Shown: one piece after another, positions 12,270 through 24,789 of the stretch
Layout of the letters: the number at the start of each line of letters is the position of its first letter
How positions within the stretch are numbered: the first letter of the stretch is position 1
NCBI GenBank assembly: GCA_046595815.1
Contig: JBKJSN010000093.1
Coordinates: 1,343-65,342 of the forward strand
DNA length: 64,000 bases
DNA from: Mycobacteriales bacterium
GTDB lineage: Bacteria; Actinomycetota; Actinomycetes; Mycobacteriales; SCTD01
Reading direction: 5' to 3'
Notes under the pieces: generated by a model
Seen by the model: only the letters and a program-made list of their open reading frames with translations
Databases searched by the model: none
What the model was told of the DNA's origin: nothing
Made by a program: the position numbers and the translations under genes

Positions 12270-13502
12270 ATGGATCACGCCAGCCTGCGCGCGGCCTTCG
12301 CGCGCCGCCTCTCGCACCTGTACGCCGAAGAGGTGCCGGCCTACGCCACGCTGGTCGAGGTCAGCCGAGCCGTCAACGCCGACGTCGCGGCCGCCCTCGG
12401 GTCCGATGCCGAGCGCCTGGGCTCGATCGAGCGGGTGACCGAGGAGCGGCACGGGGCGATCCGGGTCGGCTCGCTCGCCGAGCTCCGTCAGGTGGCGCAG
12501 GTCTTCGCCGGGTTCGGGATGGAGCCGGTCGGCTTCTACGACCTGCGCGACGCGCGTGGCGCGATCCCGGTCATCAGCACCGGCTTCCGGGCGACGAGCC
12601 CGGAAGAGCTGGAGCGGTCGCCGTTCCGGATGTTCTGCTCGCTGCTCGAGCCGGCCGACCGGCGCTTCTTCGACGCCGACCTGGCCGCCGAGGTCGAGGC
12701 CTTCGTCGCCCGCCGCAGCCTGTTCCCGGACGAGCTGCTCTCCCTCGGCGCTCGCTCCGAGGCATCCGGAGGGCTGGAGGGCGCGGACGCTGAACGGTTC
12801 CTGGACCTGGCCACAGCCGCCTTCGCGCTGTCGCCGGAGCCGGTCGACCGGGCTTGGTACCAGCGGCTGGAGGCGGTGTCCTCGGTCGCGGCGGACATCG
12901 CCGGTGTGACCTCGACCCACCTGAACCACCTCACGCCCCGGGTGCTCGACATCGACGAGCTCTACCGCCGCATGACCGCGCGGGGGGTCGAGATGACCCC
13001 CTCCATCCAGGGCCCGCCGCGCTGGGACGGGCCCGACGTGCTGCTGCGGCAGACCTCCTTCCGTGCCCTCGCCGAGCCGCGGTCCTTCCGTGAGGCTGAC
13101 GGGTCCGTCGTACCCGGGGATCTGAAGGTGCGCTTCGGCGAGGTGGAGTGCCGCGGCATCGCCCTCACCCCGGCAGGGATGGAGCTCTACCAGGACCTCG
13201 TCGGCAAGGACGCGGCGGACTGGGCGCTGAAGGTGCCGGGCACCGAGCAGGGGCTGCGCGAGGAGGGCCTGGCGTGGTTCCGGACCGACGGCACGCCGAT
13301 CGTCTACGAGGACTTCCTGCCGCGGTCGGCCGCCGGCATCTTCCGCTCGAACCTCACCGCTTCCGGCAGCCGCGACGACCAGGCCACGGGGGTCGCGCGC
13401 GATCAGGCCTGGATGGCCGAGCAGCTGGGCAGGGTCGTGCACGACCCGCAGGACCTGTACGCCGAGCAGGCTGGCCTGCCGACCGAGGGACGCGGGCGAT
13501 GA
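12270..13502 (+). CDS. DUF1338 / YdcJ-type 2-oxoadipate dioxygenase-decarboxylase
   Basis: ERHGAIR, PVGFYDL, HLNHLTPRVLDID, LLRQTSF.AL.E, RFGEVE, YEDFLP.SAAGIF. Confidence 0.85.
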   Translation: MDHASLRAAFARRLSHLYAEEVPAYATLVEVSRAVNADVAAALGSDAERLGSIERVTEERHGAIRVGSLAELRQVAQVFAGFGMEPVGFYDLRDARGAIPVISTGFRATSPEELERSPFRMFCSLLEPADRRFFDADLAAEVEAFVARRSLFPDELLSLGARSEASGGLEGADAERFLDLATAAFALSPEPVDRAWYQRLEAVSSVAADIAGVTSTHLNHLTPRVLDIDELYRRMTARGVEMTPSIQGPPRWDGPDVLLRQTSFRALAEPRSFREADGSVVPGDLKVRFGEVECRGIALTPAGMELYQDLVGKDAADWALKVPGTEQGLREEGLAWFRTDGTPIVYEDFLPRSAAGIFRSNLTASGSRDDQATGVARDQAWMAEQLGRVVHDPQDLYAEQAGLPTEGRGR

Positions 13503-14152
13503 GGCGGGTCCTCGCCAGCGCCGTCCTGGGGGTCGGCCTGGTGCTGGCGGGCAGCGCCGTCGCCGCACAGCAGCCGGTGGTCGTCGCGAACTTCTCCTTC
13601 GACGACGCCTCGCCCGGCGACGACACGGTCGTGGTCAACGTCGGCGACCAGATCAAGTTCGTCTTCCCCGAGGCGATCCAGCACTCTGCGACGGTGGATG
13701 GCCTGTTCGACTCGGAGCCACAAAGCGGGGGCGAGACCTGGACGACCAAGACCCTCACCAAGCCCGGCACCTACACGCTCTACTGCACGGTCCACAAGGC
13801 CTCCCGCCACTCCGCGACCCTGCTGGTCCGCGGCTCGACCACGAGCCCCCCTCCGAAGCCCTCGCCGACGAAGACGGCCACCGCGACAAGTGGGCCCACG
13901 GCCGCAGCCACGGCGTCGCCGTCGGCCTCGACTGCACCCACCGCTTCGACGACGGCCGCAGCCAGCGGGTCGCCGACGGCGAGCCCCTCGGGCGACGTGA
14001 CGCCCAGTGCGGACGCCTCCGCCGGAGCGCAGGACGTTGCCACCACGCCCGCGGGCGGGTCCGGAGGCTCGAGCAGGCTCCCGCTGGTCCTGCTGTCGGT
14101 AGTCCTGGCCGCTGCGGCGGTCTACACCGTCATCCGAGCGCGACGCGGCTAG
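13499..14152 (+). CDS. exported cupredoxin-domain protein with Pro/Thr/Ser linker and C-terminal membrane anchor
   Basis: Signal peptide; [26 protein letters not shown]; hydrophobic tail followed by RARRG. Confidence 0.8.
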
Positions 14153-19052: not shown

Positions 19053-19130
19053 CCGGCTGCCGAGTTCCGGCGGGTCAGGGAAATGGCGGAAGCGGCACCG
19101 CGTCCCCTGCTCCGTGCGACAGTCACTGAC

Positions 19131-19397
19131 ATGACCGCTTCACGGCGACATCGTTGGGTGGCCCCGGTTCTGGGCCTACTCCAGCTCGCAGCCTTCATGC
19201 CCTATTTGATGGCGGGTCTCATCGCTCCCGAGGGGCAACTCGCGCTGGTCCGTGCGCTTTGGGTCGTGTTCGCCGTCGTGGCTGTGGTGGTCTACCGACG
19301 CAACCGTTTGCTGTCCCTGGCCGTTCCAGGAGCCACGCTGCTGATGGGAATTGCGCTGATGGTTGTGGGTGGGGCCTTCTTGGGATGGCAGGGGTAA
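19131..19397 (+). CDS. small 3-TM membrane protein
   Basis: Three hydrophobic stretches in 88 aa; codon usage less GC-biased than neighbours. Confidence 0.55.
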   Translation: MTASRRHRWVAPVLGLLQLAAFMPYLMAGLIAPEGQLALVRALWVVFAVVAVVVYRRNRLLSLAVPGATLLMGIALMVVGGAFLGWQG

Positions 19398-19426: not shown

Positions 19427-20176
19427 TCAGGCGGAGCTGACGGCCACGACCTGGCCGGGTCGCGTGGGCACGACGCCCGCCGACTCGAGGCTGAGGCCGA
19501 AGCCAGCCGTCCTGTCGTAGGGGAGCACCAGCTGGTGTGCCTCTCCGACGGTCCCTGGTTGGGTGGCGCGGAGCGAGCCGACCAGGGTCATCTCTCCCTC
19601 ACGCGGGAGCTGCCACAGCACGTAGACCTTGTTGGCCGACGGCGGTCGCAACGTGGTCGACAGCAACTGCACCTTTCCGTCCCGCACCAGCAGCGTGGCC
19701 TTGTCCTGCAGGTTCACCACGTGGCAGCCAGGCGAGGAGGTGCACGCCGACAGCGCCAGCTGCTGCGGGGTCTGCGCTGGTCCCGACTGGGCGGCGAGGT
19801 AGGCCGCTCCGGCACCAAGCACGAGTACGGCGGCCGCGGCGGCGCTGACCAGGCGAGGCGCCCGCCGGCGGGCACGCACCTCGTCCAGCGAGGTGACCGG
19901 AGCAGGGGTCATGCCGGCGCCGCCGTCCTCCGCGCCCCTCGCCGCTGACGTCGGCGGCAAGATCCCGGCGCGGATGCGCTCCCAGCTCGGCGCTTGGTCC
20001 TCGGGGTTCACGAGGGTGCCGAGCCGGGCGGCGACGAGAGCGTGGTCCGCCAGCACGTCCGGGCAGCGCTCGCAGGTGGCCAGGTGGGCGAGGAACGCCG
20101 CCTCGTCCTCCGGCTCAAGGGCGCTCAGGGCGTGGCCAGCGGCAAGCTCCTCCCAGTGCTCGTGCACCTCAGTCAT
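19427..20176 (-). CDS. anti-sigma factor RskA-type with ZAS motif (copy 1)
   Basis: H...ALEP.D...F..HL..C..C; TM helix; YVLW, FGLSLE..G..PT.P. Confidence 0.85.
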   Translation of the reverse strand: MTEVHEHWEELAAGHALSALEPEDEAAFLAHLATCERCPDVLADHALVAARLGTLVNPEDQAPSWERIRAGILPPTSAARGAEDGGAGMTPAPVTSLDEVRARRRAPRLVSAAAAAVLVLGAGAAYLAAQSGPAQTPQQLALSACTSSPGCHVVNLQDKATLLVRDGKVQLLSTTLRPPSANKVYVLWQLPREGEMTLVGSLRATQPGTVGEAHQLVLPYDRTAGFGLSLESAGVVPTRPGQVVAVSSA

Positions 20177-20753
20177 GCAGCTCGCCCCCGCCCTCTCCCA
20201 AGTCCGGCCCCAGCTCCTCGCGCAGCTTGCGCAGGGCAGCCAGCGTCCGGCTCTTCACCGTGCCGAGCGGCATCCCTGTCATCTCGGCGATCTCCCGTTG
20301 CGTGTAGCCGCCGTAATAGGCGATCAGAAGGACCTCGCGCTGCTCAGGGGGCAGGATGCTCAGCGCCTCCCGGGTCCGCTCGGCGCGAAGGGTCGCCCAC
20401 GCCTCGTCGTCGGGCCCCGGGCTGGCCGAGACGAGATCGAGCATCACCTGGTCTTCGCTGAGGCGCCGACGACGGGTGCTCTCGCGACGAACCGCGTCGA
20501 CGGCCTTGTGGTGGGTGACCGAGAGCAGCCACGTGCTGACAGCGCCTCGCGCCGGGTCGTAGCCGGTCCCCTGCCACAGCGCGAGGAAGACCTGCTGCAC
20601 AACGTCCTCCGCCAGCTGCGGGTCGTTGAGGATGCGCCGGGCGAGTGCGTAGCAGGGCCGTCCGTAGCGCCCGTAGATGATCTCCAGCGCGCCCTCGTCA
20701 CCGGAGGCAAGGCGACGGATGAGCTCGCCATCCTCCAACGCGGTCGCGGACAT
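20169..20753 (-). CDS. ECF sigma factor, SigK-like
   Basis: AEDVVQQVFLALW, YDPARG.V.TWLL...HHKAVD.VR, AYYGGYTQREIA...PLGTVKSR; an in-frame upstream start at 20807/20810 is also possible. Confidence 0.9.
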   Translation of the reverse strand: MSATALEDGELIRRLASGDEGALEIIYGRYGRPCYALARRILNDPQLAEDVVQQVFLALWQGTGYDPARGAVSTWLLSVTHHKAVDAVRRESTRRRRLSEDQVMLDLVSASPGPDDEAWATLRAERTREALSILPPEQREVLLIAYYGGYTQREIAEMTGMPLGTVKSRTLAALRKLREELGPDLGEGGGELHD

Positions 20754-20806
20754 GGGCCCACTGTGCCAGACGTCCTGAGCGGTCACGACCGGCGGGAGCG
20801 TGGTCA

Positions 20807-21583
20807 TCACGTCTCCCCGGCCAGGAGGGGTGTCTGGATGGTGCGTACCGGCACGGCGCGCCCCTTCTCTCTCGTGACCATGAAGGCCTTGGCGGTGTCA
20901 GCGGATGCGAGCTCGAGATCGTTGATGACGCTCACGCGCGCTGACGTGACGTCGAAGGCGCCGACCGCGTGGACGTCCCCGAAGGTCGTCTTCACCCACA
21001 GCACGTAGACGCTGGTGCGCGCGTCGTTCGGGGTCACCCCGGACATGACAAGCGAGAGGGTGCGCCCGTTGACGATGACCGCGCCGCGGCCGCCGTCACC
21101 CTGGAGGTCGATCTTCCGCGTACCCGGGACGAGGAGTGATGCGACGGTCGAGCCGAGCCGGTCGGCGGCCAGCTGAGCCTGCTGCTCCCGGGGGCTCGGT
21201 CCCCGGCCGACCGACAGCACGAGCGCCAGTACGACGACCGCGGCGGCCGCGCTGACGAGGGAGGTCATGAGCCGCACGGAGCGGCGTTGGGGCCTGGTGG
21301 CCCGAAGGCCGGGACGCAGAGGCGCCGGCGGTTCGAGCTGTCGGCGCGAGGAGACCGCGCCGGAGCGGATCCCGTGAAGGAGGGAGGCAGGAGGGGCTTC
21401 GGTCGTCACGGCCCACGCGAGGTGGGCCAGGGTGTCGCGGTGGCCGGCAACGGCGCGCTCGCAGACCGGACACGTCGACAGGTGGTCCAGGAACAGCAGC
21501 TCGTCGTCAGGCTCCAGCGCGGACAGGGCCCACCCGGCTGCGAGCACGTCGTAGTCCGCGTGCCTGCGCTCGCGGTCGCTCAT
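20807..21583 (-). CDS. anti-sigma factor RskA-type with ZAS motif (copy 2)
   Basis: H..YDVLAAGWALSALEPDDE..FLDHLSTCPVC; TM helix; YVLW, FMVTRE. Confidence 0.85.
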   Translation of the reverse strand: MSDRERRHADYDVLAAGWALSALEPDDELLFLDHLSTCPVCERAVAGHRDTLAHLAWAVTTEAPPASLLHGIRSGAVSSRRQLEPPAPLRPGLRATRPQRRSVRLMTSLVSAAAAVVVLALVLSVGRGPSPREQQAQLAADRLGSTVASLLVPGTRKIDLQGDGGRGAVIVNGRTLSLVMSGVTPNDARTSVYVLWVKTTFGDVHAVGAFDVTSARVSVINDLELASADTAKAFMVTREKGRAVPVRTIQTPLLAGET

Positions 21584-21627
21584 CACGCCGCCTCGGGCGG
21601 CCGGCTGACCGCGCTCGCTGTCCTCAC
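21583..21627 (-). other. leaderless 14-codon mini-ORF (MRTASAVSRPPEAA) coupled to anti-sigma copy 2
   Basis: GTG exactly 8 nt after the CGAA -10, as in the two sister promoters; TGA overlaps the anti-sigma start (GTGATG). Confidence 0.4.
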
Positions 21628-21635
21628 GCAGTGCA

Positions 21636-21662
21636 TTCGCGCGCCGAGCGTCTCCGGATCGG
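21636..21662 (-). promoter_or_regulatory. SigK-type promoter 1
   Basis: CCGATCC-N16-CGAA. Confidence 0.6.
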
Positions 21663-21673
21663 TGCCGGGAGCC

Positions 21674-22309
21674 TCAGTGGGAGGCATGAGGTGCTCCGTC
21701 GTGCTCGTGCTGGAGCCGGCAGCTGAAGTAGGCCGTGACGCCACGGTCGACCCCGCGAGAGTCGATGTCACCGGTCAGGATCGGCGCCGACGGGCACGGC
21801 GCCACCGAGGAGCCGTGCTCATGGGACGGGCTGGCGAGGGCCGTGCCGCTCACCGAGCCGCAGAGCAGCAGCACGGCCGCGAAGCCGAGAGCCCTGCCCC
21901 GTCCCAGCGGCGCGGACAGGGCGCGGGGGCGGCGAGAGAGCAGCAGCGCACCGAGGGCAACAGGCACCTCGAGGGCACAGCACAGCAGGTCCCTCGTCCC
22001 CACGGGCTCCGCGGTGAAGGCCGCCGGTCCGAGGGGCAGACCGGTCGTCCTGCTCACCAGGTACGTCCCGATGAACACCAGTGAGACCAAGCCTCCCAGG
22101 CGTAGGGCCACTCGCGAGTCCCGTGTCGCGACGAGGACGGCCCACAGCACCTGGAAGACACCGGCAGCGGCGAAGGCGACGCCCAGCGGCCGCCACTGCT
22201 GGTAGTGCTCGCCGACGAAGGACAGGTGAACGGCTCCAGCACCTAGTGAGGCCGCAGCGAGGACGATTCGAGCTGCCGTGCGCTGCGGCAGGCCGGAGAG
22301 AGTCTTCAT
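21674..22309 (-). CDS. multi-TM membrane protein with His motifs
   Basis: GAVHL....EHY..W, SRTTGLPLGP; C-terminal HEH..C...C..HEHDGAPHASH. Confidence 0.75.
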   Translation of the reverse strand: MKTLSGLPQRTAARIVLAAASLGAGAVHLSFVGEHYQQWRPLGVAFAAAGVFQVLWAVLVATRDSRVALRLGGLVSLVFIGTYLVSRTTGLPLGPAAFTAEPVGTRDLLCCALEVPVALGALLLSRRPRALSAPLGRGRALGFAAVLLLCGSVSGTALASPSHEHGSSVAPCPSAPILTGDIDSRGVDRGVTAYFSCRLQHEHDGAPHASH

Positions 22310-22317
22310 GCCAGGCG

Positions 22318-22344
22318 TTCGCGCCGGTGAGCTTCTCGGACTTC
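22318..22344 (-). promoter_or_regulatory. SigK-type promoter 2 (leaderless)
   Basis: GAAGTCC-N16-CGAA-N8-ATG(22309). Confidence 0.55.
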
Positions 22345-22356
22345 CCTGGCGCTGTG

Positions 22357-22383
22357 CCGAACCGAATGGCCGGGCGGCGCGAA
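22357..22383 (+). promoter_or_regulatory. SigK-type promoter 3 (leaderless)
   Basis: CCGAACC-N16-CGAA-N8-ATG(22392). Confidence 0.6.
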
Positions 22384-22391
22384 AGCAAGGC

Positions 22392-22817
22392 ATGACCCGA
22401 CACCGAGCCACTACCTCCAGCCGCGTGTACTCAGCAGCGCTCGTCACGGCGGGCCTCCTGGCTCTGACGGCCTGCAGCTCGAGCAGTGGCGAGGCGGACA
22501 GCACCGACGGCGGCACGAGCGCCGACGGCGTCAGCGTGGACACCGGGCTGCTCGCCTTCGACCCCAAGTCCGTCACCGTCACCAAGGGCCAGACGGTGAC
22601 CTGGGTCGGCGGGGACAACATCAGCCACATCCTCGTGCAGGGCTCCTACGAGGTGGGTGCGGATGGCCTCCGCACGAAGGAGAGCGACGACAAGGCCTTC
22701 AACCTCACGCTCAACCGCAAGGGCCAGCGCGTGACCCACACCTACAGCACGTCCGGGACGTTCACCTACTTCTGCACGATCCACAAGGGGATGAACGGCA
22801 CCGTCGTCGTCTCCTGA
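22392..22817 (+). CDS. cupredoxin (plastocyanin/azurin-like) lipoprotein
   Basis: Lipobox LTAC; AFDP..VTV..G.TVTW, SHIL, YFCTIHKGMNG type-1 copper ligands. Confidence 0.9.
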   Translation: MTRHRATTSSRVYSAALVTAGLLALTACSSSSGEADSTDGGTSADGVSVDTGLLAFDPKSVTVTKGQTVTWVGGDNISHILVQGSYEVGADGLRTKESDDKAFNLTLNRKGQRVTHTYSTSGTFTYFCTIHKGMNGTVVVS

Positions 22818-22896
22818 TCGACCCCCTCACCCCACAAGCCAGGCCGCTCGTCCGAGCGCGCCCTGACCCTGCCCACTCCCACGAAAGAAGCTCACC

Positions 22897-24135
22897 ATGC
22901 AACGCACACCGGTCAGGATCGCGGCCGTCGCACTGGGTATCGCTCTCTCAGCGACCGCCTGCGGCTCCAGCAACGACACCAAGAGCGCGTCAGCCGGCTC
23001 CCCGTCGGCGTCCGCCACCACGGGCACGGTCGGTCTGGAGGCCACGACGACCAAGGCCGTGACACTGCGTGCCGGTCTGACGTACCTCCTCGAGGAGCAC
23101 GTCCAGCTCGCCGGCATCGCGACGGGCACTGCCCTGGCGAAGAAGGGCAACCTCAAGGACCCGGCCGTGAAGGCCGCCGTCGCGGCTCTCGACGCCAACT
23201 CCGTCGCGCTGAGCAAGGCTGTGGGCTCGGCCTACCCGCAGGCGGAGGCGCCGTTCCTCGCCTCCTGGCGCCAGCACATCGGGTTCTTCGTCGACTACAC
23301 GCTCGGCAAGGCCACGAAGGACAAGGCGATGACCGCGAAGGCCATCAAGGCCCTGGACGGCTACCGCACCAGCTTCGGCCAGCTCATCAACTCCGTCGTG
23401 CCCGAGCTGCCTGCCGACGCTGTCGCCAACGAGCTCAAGCCGCACGTCGCAAGCCTCTTCGCCGCCATCGACGCCCAGGTCGCGGGGAGCCCCAAGCAGT
23501 TCGCCCTGCTCCAGGAGGCGGCCGGCCACATGCCCGGCACCGCGGCGATCCTCGCCAGCGGCATCGCGACGAACCTCAAGCTCGGGAAGACCGACACGGG
23601 CGCCGGCGACCTCCGCGCGGGGCTGACCGCCCTGCTCACCCAGCACGTCTACACGGCCGGCATCGCGATCAACACGGCCGTCGCCAAGGGCGGGAACCTG
23701 AAGGACCCGATGGTGGTCGCCGCCGTCAACGCCCTCGACGCCAACTCCGTCGCGCTGAGCAAGGCTGTCGGCGCGGCGTACCCGCAGGCGGAGGCGCCGT
23801 TCCTTGCGTCCTGGCGCCAGCACATCGGCTTCTTCGTCGACTACACGCTCGGCAAGGCGACGATGAGCGACGCGAAGGTCACGAAGGCGAAGGCCGACCT
23901 GGACGGCTACCGGACCAGCTTCGGTCAGCTCATCAACTCGGTCGTGCCCGAGCTGCCTGCTGACGCCGTCGCCAACGAGCTCACGCCGCACGTCGCGAGC
24001 CTGTTCACCGCGATCGACGCCGTCGTAGCCGGTGACCCCAGTGTCTTCACCAAGCTGCAGGCAGCCGCTGGTCACATGCCCGGTACAGCCGCGACGCTGG
24101 CCGGCGGGATCTCGCAGAACCTCAAGCTCAGCTAG
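22897..24135 (+). CDS. lipoprotein with two tandem helical His-bearing domains (family often labelled 'copper amine oxidase-like')
   Basis: Lipobox ATAC; 182-aa repeat, each copy with LL..HV, WRQHIGFFVDY, PHV, AGHM. Confidence 0.75.
   Translation: MQRTPVRIAAVALGIALSATACGSSNDTKSASAGSPSASATTGTVGLEATTTKAVTLRAGLTYLLEEHVQLAGIATGTALAKKGNLKDPAVKAAVAALDANSVALSKAVGSAYPQAEAPFLASWRQHIGFFVDYTLGKATKDKAMTAKAIKALDGYRTSFGQLINSVVPELPADAVANELKPHVASLFAAIDAQVAGSPKQFALLQEAAGHMPGTAAILASGIATNLKLGKTDTGAGDLRAGLTALLTQHVYTAGIAINTAVAKGGNLKDPMVVAAVNALDANSVALSKAVGAAYPQAEAPFLASWRQHIGFFVDYTLGKATMSDAKVTKAKADLDGYRTSFGQLINSVVPELPADAVANELTPHVASLFTAIDAVVAGDPSVFTKLQAAAGHMPGTAATLAGGISQNLKLS
23065..24129 (+). repeat. intragenic tandem duplication, period 546 nt
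   Basis: GACGCCAACTCCGTCGCGCTGAGCAAGGCTGT at 23191 and 23737, with many other near-identical blocks. Confidence 0.9.
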
Positions 24136-24152
24136 CCTTAGCACCAGCTAAG

Positions 24153-24188
24153 AGGTGGGGAGGGTCACGACCGTGACCCTCCCCACCT
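24153..24188. terminator. long perfect hairpin (terminator or mRNA stabiliser)
   Basis: AGGTGGGGAGGGTCACG-ac-CGTGACCCTCCCCACCT. Confidence 0.7.
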
Positions 24189-24213
24189 GTCTGAGTACCC
24201 CAAGGGGGGCACC

Positions 24214-24789
24214 GTGAGGGCTCACGGCGAAGGCTCGCGGACGCAGCCTGCAAGTTGGGCGAGGGTCACGGCGGCCTTGGTACTCGGGGCAGGGATCGCC
24301 GTCGCTCTCGGGGGAGTAGGACGGGCCCTGACTCCGGAGTACAGGTTGCTACCGGGTTTCGGCTTCACCGACAACCTCACCTTCAAGGCCTGGCTCGCCA
24401 GCGGCGTCCTGCTCCTCGCCGGTGGCCAGCTCCTCACGGCGCTCTGGATGTTCGGCCGCCTCCCGCTCGTCCACCGGCGGCCTGCGTGGTTGGCGCGCAC
24501 GCACCGGTCACTCGGCGCCACCGCCTTCCTGCTCAGCCTCCCCGTTGCCGCTTGCTGCCTGCTCGCCTACGGCTTCGCTCCCGCACCCCTCTCCGGCCGA
24601 ACCCTCGCGCACTCGGTGCTGGGGTGTTTGTTCTACGGGACCTTCGCCGTCAAGGTCCTGGCTGTCCGCTCAACCCGGGTCTCGCCCTGGGTTCTGCCCG
24701 TCGTGGGCGGGAGCCTGTTCACGCTCGTCGTTCTCCTCTGGATGACAAGCGCCCTGTGGTTCTTCCAGGTCACCGGAATCCACCTGTGA
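24214..24789 (+). CDS. DUF6529-like membrane protein (possible di-His haem b binding)
   Basis: KAWLAS...QLLTALWM.GRL, HRSLG, PVA..CL..YGF, HSVLGCLFYG.FAVKVL, WVLPVVGG.LF. Confidence 0.75.
   Translation: MRAHGEGSRTQPASWARVTAALVLGAGIAVALGGVGRALTPEYRLLPGFGFTDNLTFKAWLASGVLLLAGGQLLTALWMFGRLPLVHRRPAWLARTHRSLGATAFLLSLPVAACCLLAYGFAPAPLSGRTLAHSVLGCLFYGTFAVKVLAVRSTRVSPWVLPVVGGSLFTLVVLLWMTSALWFFQVTGIHL

Follow-up and report, generated by a model that had tools for sequence, protein, structure and literature searches.

What does a SigK-type sigma factor control when the genes beside it encode a blue-copper protein and an unnamed helical lipoprotein? The question is raised by positions 19427-24789 of a 64,000-nucleotide stretch of DNA (the window, by which we mean that whole stretch), which belongs to contig C166 of an actinobacterial assembly (G000; 3.13 Mb, 89% complete). 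The original prediction described here a self-contained module of seven genes, encoding a SigK-like sigma, two anti-sigmas and four cargo proteins, and open reading frame (ORF) and Pfam checks recover all seven at the positions given below. Judged from sequence comparison, the conserved core is smaller than was claimed: it consists of an amicyanin-like copper lipoprotein (the cupredoxin) and the 412-amino-acid (aa) lipoprotein encoded next to it, and this pair stands behind a conserved SigK-type promoter motif. In our best reading the module represents the envelope redox arm of a regulon of the ECF19/SigK type (ECF, extracytoplasmic function). That the pair acts as an extracytoplasmic one-electron redox pair against an oxidant at the cell surface, under envelope oxidative stress, is given a probability of roughly 45%. 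The type of regulator is already known, and the cargo pair was not found in the literature searched; nothing turned up on the lipoprotein family, the gene pair or DUF6529, in a search whose coverage ended before bioRxiv supplements and subscription journals. What SigK-type regulons respond to, and what they are for, is described as still open (PMC7509140).

The conserved gene pair and its promoter motif

The cupredoxin gene (22392-22817, plus strand) encodes a protein with a lipobox cysteine (Cys28) and a PF00127 domain (E 4e-14). The four residues H79, C128, H131 and M134 are invariant in all 77 aligned cupredoxins with residues at those positions, and at the sequence level the protein is thus shown to carry the complete ligand set of a type 1 copper site. 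The 412-aa lipoprotein (22897-24135, plus strand) has its closest relatives in metagenome bins of Mycobacteriales and Frankiales, and the sequencing runs that best match the window are soil metagenomes. The two genes keep company over a wide range of genomes. Among the 80 best genome loci, 75 have a cupredoxin beside the lipoprotein; in three of the other five, less than 300 nucleotides (nt) of upstream DNA is present. The two also adjoin in all 50 metagenome loci whose upstream DNA reaches 700 nt or more (30 shorter loci were excluded). The two are fused in 4 of 38 long relatives, at either end of the chain, and a divergent plastocyanin-family gene lies beside the lipoprotein in one of two Planococcus plasmid loci. 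Within the class, 30 of 401 genomes were found to carry the lipoprotein family itself, a tally that includes one unpublished genome and two marginal matches; within the genus, 9 of 18 do.

The lipoprotein might instead be a ligand-binding or structural surface protein, brought together with the cupredoxin only by a common sigma factor. SigK-type regulons do gather varied cargo (PMC7826278), a circularly permuted branch of the family has no cupredoxin neighbour, and some multi-repeat relatives have lost the histidines (P0194). However, the fusions at either end, together with an adjacency that persists in altered gene orders and across phyla, speak against such unrelated cargo, and we consider it improbable.

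The wider neighbourhood is far less constant than the pair. We counted neighbours within 5 kb in 97 distinct loci, comprising the 80 best and 17 from a class-wide sample after removal of three duplicates. Anti-sigma genes are present in 20 of these, genes of the His-membrane families in 28, DUF6529 in 5 and ufa-like genes in 6. All four of the proposed cargo families occur together in 2 of the 97, and the claim that they are co-conserved fails on this co-occurrence. The presence of the cupredoxin and the six-helix lipoprotein does bear out the claim that the cargo differs from that of mycobacterial SigK. An unannotated gene of about 270 aa, without a Pfam match, adjoins the pair in L059, L087 and L089, and carries the motif in 3 of 4 loci.

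The three promoter-like sites that had been described are all there. They share one architecture, CCGATCC, GAAGTCC or CCGAACC followed by N16-CGAA-N8 and a start codon, and lie at 21662 (minus), 22344 (minus) and 22357 (plus). The first (21636-21662) precedes the operon of leader ORF, anti-sigma, sigma and anti-sigma. The second (22318-22344), with a divergent -35 element, precedes the His-membrane gene and has matching sites in loci L001-L004, and the third (22357-22383) precedes the cupredoxin-lipoprotein operon and is conserved in other genomes. The spacing to the predicted start codon at 21627 holds, but what opens there is a 14-codon ORF and not a protein gene. GCG also stands directly before each CGAA in the window; since none of the 39 sites in other genomes carries it, this extension was rejected as part of the motif. 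With a start codon at +8, the pattern has 10 matches in the 3.13-Mb genome, 3 of them in the module where 0.012 are expected, for a pattern picked after the sites had been seen; the core motif alone is locally non-significant (5 observed against 1.3 expected).

Since these local statistics are post hoc, the main support for the promoters comes from their conservation elsewhere. In 39 of 59 loci from other genomes, A[AT]CC-N16-CGAA precedes the cupredoxin by no more than 200 nt, compared with 35 of 5,495 control tiles (0.6%); the 59 are those with a same-strand upstream cupredoxin and enough flank, the other 21 of the 80 being untestable by that design. The consensus over the motif-bearing loci is ACC[CA]ATCC-N16-CGAA, with a start codon at +8 in 22 of the 39. 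ATCC-N16-CGAA fits the promoters of ECF19, which have ATC at -35 and CG at -10 and are autoregulated (PMC7826278). The same motif lies upstream of the sigma gene in the genus, again with the start at +8, and the predicted SigK-type control is thereby supported by sequence conservation.

A predicted metal site in the lipoprotein

The lipoprotein has no match in Pfam, NCBIfam or PDB sequences, but its family is large: one search gave 1,821 relatives, and clustering at 50% identity leaves 1,519 clusters. Its two repeats are identical at 140 of 179 residues. AlphaFold (AF2) models each as six helices, with a predicted local distance difference test (pLDDT) of 88 and a predicted template modelling score (pTM) of 0.87 for the whole protein, and a pLDDT of 93 for a single repeat. 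Neither the whole protein nor a single repeat had a Foldseek match at E <= 0.001. VIA-align gave a best Z of 8.5 to designed helical bundles, with root-mean-square deviations of 9.3 over 172 residues and 4.1 over 165. Common arrangements give scores in this range, and the lack of relatives in fold searches does not show the fold to be new. The Atlas gave unnamed clusters plus one automatic 'glycosyltransferase' label, and an EfeO/imelysin-like reading suggested by automatic labels was dropped, with no support from Pfam or fold searches.

The histidines lie at positions 68, 127, 183 and 211 of the first repeat and 250, 309, 365 and 393 of the second. We examined conservation over 269 domains, 267 from 150 listed representatives and two from the window protein. 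H68, H127 and H183 are kept in 92%, 87% and 88%, together with W124 (99%), N101 (91%) and Y134 (91%), while H211 (68%), M212 (74%) and E67 (73%) vary more. The lipoprotein is thus duplicated and helical as predicted, but instead of four equal histidines, each repeat has three core ones and a frequent His-Met, since H211 is so much less conserved. The strongest covarying pairs (T76-T135, V69-L187, T76-Q194, Y134-D192 and E179-T215) place helices 1, 3 and 5 in parallel, with offsets of 59, 118 and 58 that lie near the His spacings of 59, 115 and 56; helix 6 would run antiparallel, with H211 opposite H183. This agreement leads us to predict one buried His3(+His-Met) metal site in each repeat. H68 also covaries with N101, which suggests a second-shell hydrogen bond. 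Internal three-fold symmetry of the repeat is weak (profile comparison, probability 4-25%).

A second form of the lipoprotein is circularly permuted and starts with helix 6 (L092-L100 and L102, from G038, G065, G109, G128, G146, G163, G209, G265 and G383; also P0123). It occurs in up to several paralogues per genome, with no cupredoxin neighbour, and some copies have the promoter motif.

Such a site could also serve storage. As a copper buffer or chaperone, the six-helix protein would bind Cu(I) stoichiometrically at the cell surface, and the cupredoxin would oxidise or receive the copper, limiting radical chemistry or supplying copper enzymes. The His/Met ligand set agrees with this. Relatives carry 1-4 repeats per chain, and Met/His-rich linkers occur in 17 of 150 relatives compared with 2 of 44 lipoproteins of the genome, so that metal storage fits these features just as well. 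Relatives of the His-membrane protein also lie beside a heavy-metal ATPase, a multicopper oxidase and DUF305. However, a motif scan of the called genes found copA/csoR motifs in 0 of the 97 loci, the gene caller missing some genes and the same patterns being positive in G000. No P1B ATPase or CsoR thus lies beside the cargo in the loci scanned, as it would in a CsoR/CopA copper-resistance locus, and copper buffering is weakened accordingly. The copA and csoR of G000 are also absent from its 12 motif-bearing genes, one site per 180 residues would make poor storage, and the near-invariant Trp, Tyr and Asn suggest a tuned site. Copper buffering is possible, if rather unlikely, and constitutes the main rival to the redox pair.

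A His3 site next to a cupredoxin donor is also the logic of NirK, and the pair might form a NirK-like nitrite reductase or a nitric oxide sink, with a type 2 copper site fed by the type 1 carrier. A NirK-like gene does occur within 5 kb in five Acidimicrobiia loci; but these five nirK genes have no promoter motif and come from a single class, no other nitrogen genes lie nearby, and the fold is unrelated to NirK. We regard nitrite or nitric oxide chemistry as the least probable of the readings weighed here. The gene concerned encodes a cupredoxin-fused protein (L052, L057, L061, L062 and L076), and its link to the regulon was rejected for want of the motif.

Membrane proteins, regulators and regulon

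The DUF6529 protein (24214-24789, plus strand; PF20139, E 4e-56) appears to be an optional accessory. It is found in 5 of the 97 loci, is skipped in a relative of about 90% identity, and lies without a motif of its own behind a 16-bp G+C-rich hairpin (24153-24188, plus strand; -51 kcal/mol for the intergenic stretch), all of which goes against its listing as co-conserved cargo. Hairpins of about -50 kcal/mol occupy the same position in L001, L002 and L003, and the one in the window is likely the end of the operon. In an alignment of the family K55, Q69, H97, C115, H133 and K147 are invariant; the two histidines are predicted on opposite membrane faces, and the invariant Lys and Cys could be their partners. 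The His pairs of a di-haem cytochrome b (b561 or ferric reductase type) would share one face, and the haem binding proposed for the module thus finds no support here. No PDB sequence matches it. We sampled 18 DUF6529 loci regardless of the lipoprotein, scanning 18 neighbours and excluding four loci (that of the window, two unpublished and one fragment). Electron carriers flank the gene in 8 of the remaining 14: cupredoxins in 4, ETF-QO-type proteins in 2, a cytochrome c in 1 and a Rieske protein in 1. These neighbours favour an electron-transfer role, and on that sequence evidence the proposed chain from membrane protein to cupredoxin to metalloprotein is plausible. In L299, L300, L308 and L309, from at least three genomes, DUF6529 lies between a single cupredoxin and a protein of two or three cupredoxin domains, possibly a copper wire of its own.

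Electrons might also travel the other way, the lipoprotein oxidising an external substrate (a reduced metal, a thiol or a small reductant) and the amicyanin-like protein passing them to the respiratory chain. The cytochrome c and Rieske neighbours of DUF6529 would suit this direction, as would the cupredoxin, which is nearest to amicyanin (E 5e-19) and the cupredoxin domains of NirK among solved sequences and has a short C-x2-H-x2-M loop in 67 of 76 cases. Against it, no conserved oxidase or dehydrogenase genes lie nearby, a stress sigma is in control, and a blue-copper centre is too oxidising for menaquinone reduction. Such reverse flow seems to us quite improbable.

The His-membrane protein (21674-22309, minus strand) has five predicted transmembrane segments, a His-rich tail and conserved H..H..E and Y..R motifs, and belongs to no Pfam family. 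Its family occurs in 49 of 201 genomes of the phylum, often beside copper or redox genes, and shows a distant relationship (hhalign 80%) to another small family found in company with the pair. Across 28 loci from the phylum, with 60 of 97 called genes scanned, it lies near cupredoxins (2 loci), cytochrome bd (2), NrfD-type genes (2) and DsbD/thioredoxin, among others; the heavy-metal ATPase mentioned above lies with a thioredoxin. Searches for longer or fused forms, weak tests in either case, gave four unannotated matches for the His-membrane protein and none for DUF6529. A paralogue in L261 (G000:C167:5380-8480) lies after a two-component system and directly upstream of a ferric-reductase/NAD-binding gene and two FMN-binding genes, without a SigK-type motif; clusters of this ferric-reductase and FMN-binding type have been described as extracytosolic electron transfer (PMC8238504).

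Which sigma factor serves these promoters? The gene at 20169-20810 (minus strand) encodes an ECF sigma with regions 2 and 4 only (Sigma70_r2 + r4). It is SigK-like in the sense of the ECF19/SigK type, but not SigK proper: it scores 140 bits with the NCBIfam SigK model, below the cut-off of 226, and has a single Cys (residue 53) instead of the Cys133/Cys183 pair of SigK. That pair occurs in 56% of ECF19 (PMC7509140) and does not define the group, whose definition is an RskA-like anti-sigma at +1 with one transmembrane segment and an optional zinc finger (PMC7826278). The adjoining anti-sigma (19427-20176, minus strand) has these features, with RskA_C (E 1e-10), an HxxxCxxC motif and one transmembrane segment (109-127). 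A relative of the sigma (E <= 1e-30) is present in 18 of 22 genus genomes, in most of them as a type I sigma beside ssgA, with the same motif upstream and a start at +8 that opens with V-R-T-A-V. The window sigma is 71-72% identical to those of G413 and G407, and 53-59% to the usual sigK of the genus.

In our trees, which exclude rows under 200 or 160 residues and of which that of the sigmas is a quick version, the sigma falls in a type II clade (support 98), as does the anti-sigma at 19427-20176 (99/97), which groups with those of G413 and G407 (99/95) and by these groupings is the cognate partner of the sigma. The second anti-sigma (20807-21583, minus strand; RskA_C, E 5e-8) is an orphan inside the type I clade (100/99). 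The two anti-sigmas thus belong to different clades and form a mosaic, not the designed two-anti-sigma circuit that had been proposed. Upstream of the orphan lies the 14-codon leader ORF (21583-21627, minus strand), whose stop overlaps the anti-sigma start. Its first 11 nt match the 5' end of the genus's type I sigK genes, whose start codon likewise stands at +8, and it is likely a remnant of a deleted type I sigK. No type I sigma was found at the locus or among the sigma matches across the source assembly, itself 89% complete. Given that the type I promoter, the first 11 nt and the type I anti-sigma remain before the type II pair, the likeliest history is that the type I sigma was lost while its leader and anti-sigma stayed ahead of an intact type II pair. 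In runs X4, X5, X7 and X9 (three studies) the leader start has changed from GTG to ATG, with no indels and with the frame and the stop/start overlap kept, which suggests that the overlap reflects translational coupling. The leader would then offer a clear case of a regulator gene shrunk to a translational-coupling stub. Contigs from other runs span the sigma/anti-sigma junction (X2 and X3) and the leader-to-promoter stretch (X1), and the layout is therefore not a mis-assembly, although the source sample may be among what runs X1 and X2 contain.

Contrary to what was claimed, the module does not stand alone: the same motif also precedes genes elsewhere. In the source genome it lies, on another contig, upstream of an operon of FAD oxidoreductase, DUF1365 and methyltransferase genes beside a photolyase, and of the 39 motif-bearing loci 33 lack both a sigma and an anti-sigma gene within 4 kb. 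By domain content, as opposed to an orthology tree, the three proteins correspond to UfaD, UfaO and UfaM, the enzymes of furan fatty acid synthesis in the ChrR regulon of Rhodobacter (PMC7380195). The motif precedes ufaD-like genes in 10 of 12 loci. LitS, an ECF18/19 sigma, controls photolyase, cyclopropane-lipid and carotenoid genes in light (PMC7826278).

Other genes touch the regulon or the window. A small membrane protein (L104:4568-4957; G000:C181:20567-20956) has the same motif with a start at +8 and conserved D..H..L..YD, YRY and MY.P.W..K elements, and its family accompanies the pair in 12 of the 97 loci. An aldo-keto reductase with its own motif copy is divergent from the pair in L023, L024, L029, L032, L035, L038, L039, L043, L050 and L064, loci of Propionibacteriaceae type or unclassified actinobacterial. 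Within the window but outside the module, a 104-aa gene product with three transmembrane segments (19083-19397, plus strand) is encoded convergently on the anti-sigma at 19427-20176, and is missing in the relative from run X4. Further away, a long ORF without a Pfam match (13499-14152, plus strand) encodes a second cupredoxin-like protein (E 1e-10 with the local cupredoxin profile), with a signal peptide, a Pro/Ser/Thr stalk, a C-terminal membrane anchor and a C-x2-H-x4-H loop in which His takes the usual Met position.

A proposed redox pair at the cell surface and its known counterparts

How might these parts work together? We put forward that stress would free the sigma from its membrane anti-sigma, and that, to judge from the conserved motifs, the sigma would then transcribe the operon it belongs to along with the pair and the His-membrane gene, and at another locus the ufa-like furan-lipid operon. 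Electrons from the quinol pool would pass through an interchangeable membrane protein, DUF6529 here and perhaps the His-membrane family in other genomes, to the cupredoxin, whose ligand set is complete in the sequence and which could feed the predicted metal site. There, helices 1, 3 and 5 of each repeat would align three His, with H211-M212 beside H183. Copper is the proposed metal, and the proposed substrate is an oxidant derived from oxygen, either superoxide or peroxide. In the most specific version, which we judge clearly unlikely as it stands, the repeat would represent a new metalloenzyme fold: its natural three-helix His3 core, with a fourth His and a Met, would be reduced by blue copper, be fed with menaquinol via DUF6529, and destroy superoxide or peroxide extracellularly.

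Several observations weigh against the redox pair. Besides the repeat numbers, linkers and heavy-metal neighbours discussed under copper buffering, 12 of the 17 class-sample loci (the permuted branch and two others) have no neighbouring cupredoxin, and only 31 of the 97 loci have any membrane partner at all. The predicted His geometry rests on covariation and not on the model coordinates. Genome-wide, the motif is no commoner than versions with other spacer lengths (11 genes against 3-11), and for this reason single sites were accepted only if conserved; msrB, with a site conserved in 1 of 26 loci, was rejected as a regulon member. The photolyase beside the ufa-like operon has no motif of its own, and the lipoprotein and ufaD co-occur no more than by chance (both in 3 of 18 genus genomes, with the lipoprotein in 9 and ufaD in 7).

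The locus ties the SigK promoter class to redox-looking cargo in harmless soil bacteria, and a large, unnamed and mislabelled family gains a predicted metal site, a partner and a regulator. If the most specific version is true, superoxide reductase would have a helical counterpart fed by a copper carrier, and the SigK-type photo-oxidative response would gain its missing arm at the surface. The new metalloenzyme fold would then be spread over Actinomycetota, Chloroflexota and Bacillota, in no fewer than 1,519 sequence clusters.

Several known systems resemble parts of the module. The cupredoxin shares with amicyanin and plastocyanin carriers the His-Cys-His-Met set and the short loop, but it is lipid-anchored, and its partner is an unnamed helical protein and not methylamine dehydrogenase. 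Superoxide reductase has a His4-Cys iron site fed by rubredoxin, and the type 2 site of copper nitrite reductase is His3. The predicted site resembles both in that several His and a sulfur ligand, with a Glu close by, are paired with a small carrier of single electrons, but in an all-helical extracytoplasmic fold with Met instead of Cys; neither family turned up in fold searches with the lipoprotein models. Records labelled 'copper amine oxidase' in Bacillota are relatives by sequence, including true relatives on two Planococcus plasmids (34-35% identity), but a copper amine oxidase identity was rejected, as Pfam finds no catalytic domain in the window protein or 38 relatives and the model is all-helical. 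The label likely stems from a Cu_amine_oxidN1 domain fused to some relatives; this N-terminal accessory domain is present in 2 of the 38.

Among regulators, the photo-oxidative RpoE-ChrR system (ECF11) of Rhodobacter belongs to a related clade (ECF11-19-18) and likewise includes furan fatty acid genes (ufaM/ufaD/ufaO), and the available part of its description makes no mention of a cupredoxin/six-helix pair (PMC7380195). As a further point in common, a photolyase lies directly upstream of the ufa-like genes in G000; it has no motif itself, and the anti-sigma is a membrane RskA instead of the soluble ChrR. Other counterparts are SigK-RskA (ECF19) and the ECF18/19 systems including LitS, with which the module shares an ECF sigma, a one-transmembrane RskA-type anti-sigma at +1, ATC/-35 and CG/-10 promoter elements, autoregulation as predicted from the motif, and a regulon that takes in genes of the FAD oxidoreductase, DUF1365 and cyclopropane-synthase types (PMC7826278). 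From mycobacterial SigK-RskA it differs in the lack of the Cys133/Cys183 pair, in its zinc-finger-type anti-sigmas, in the orphan second anti-sigma with its leader ORF, and in its cargo, a cupredoxin and a six-helix lipoprotein in place of the MPT70 and MPT83 antigens.

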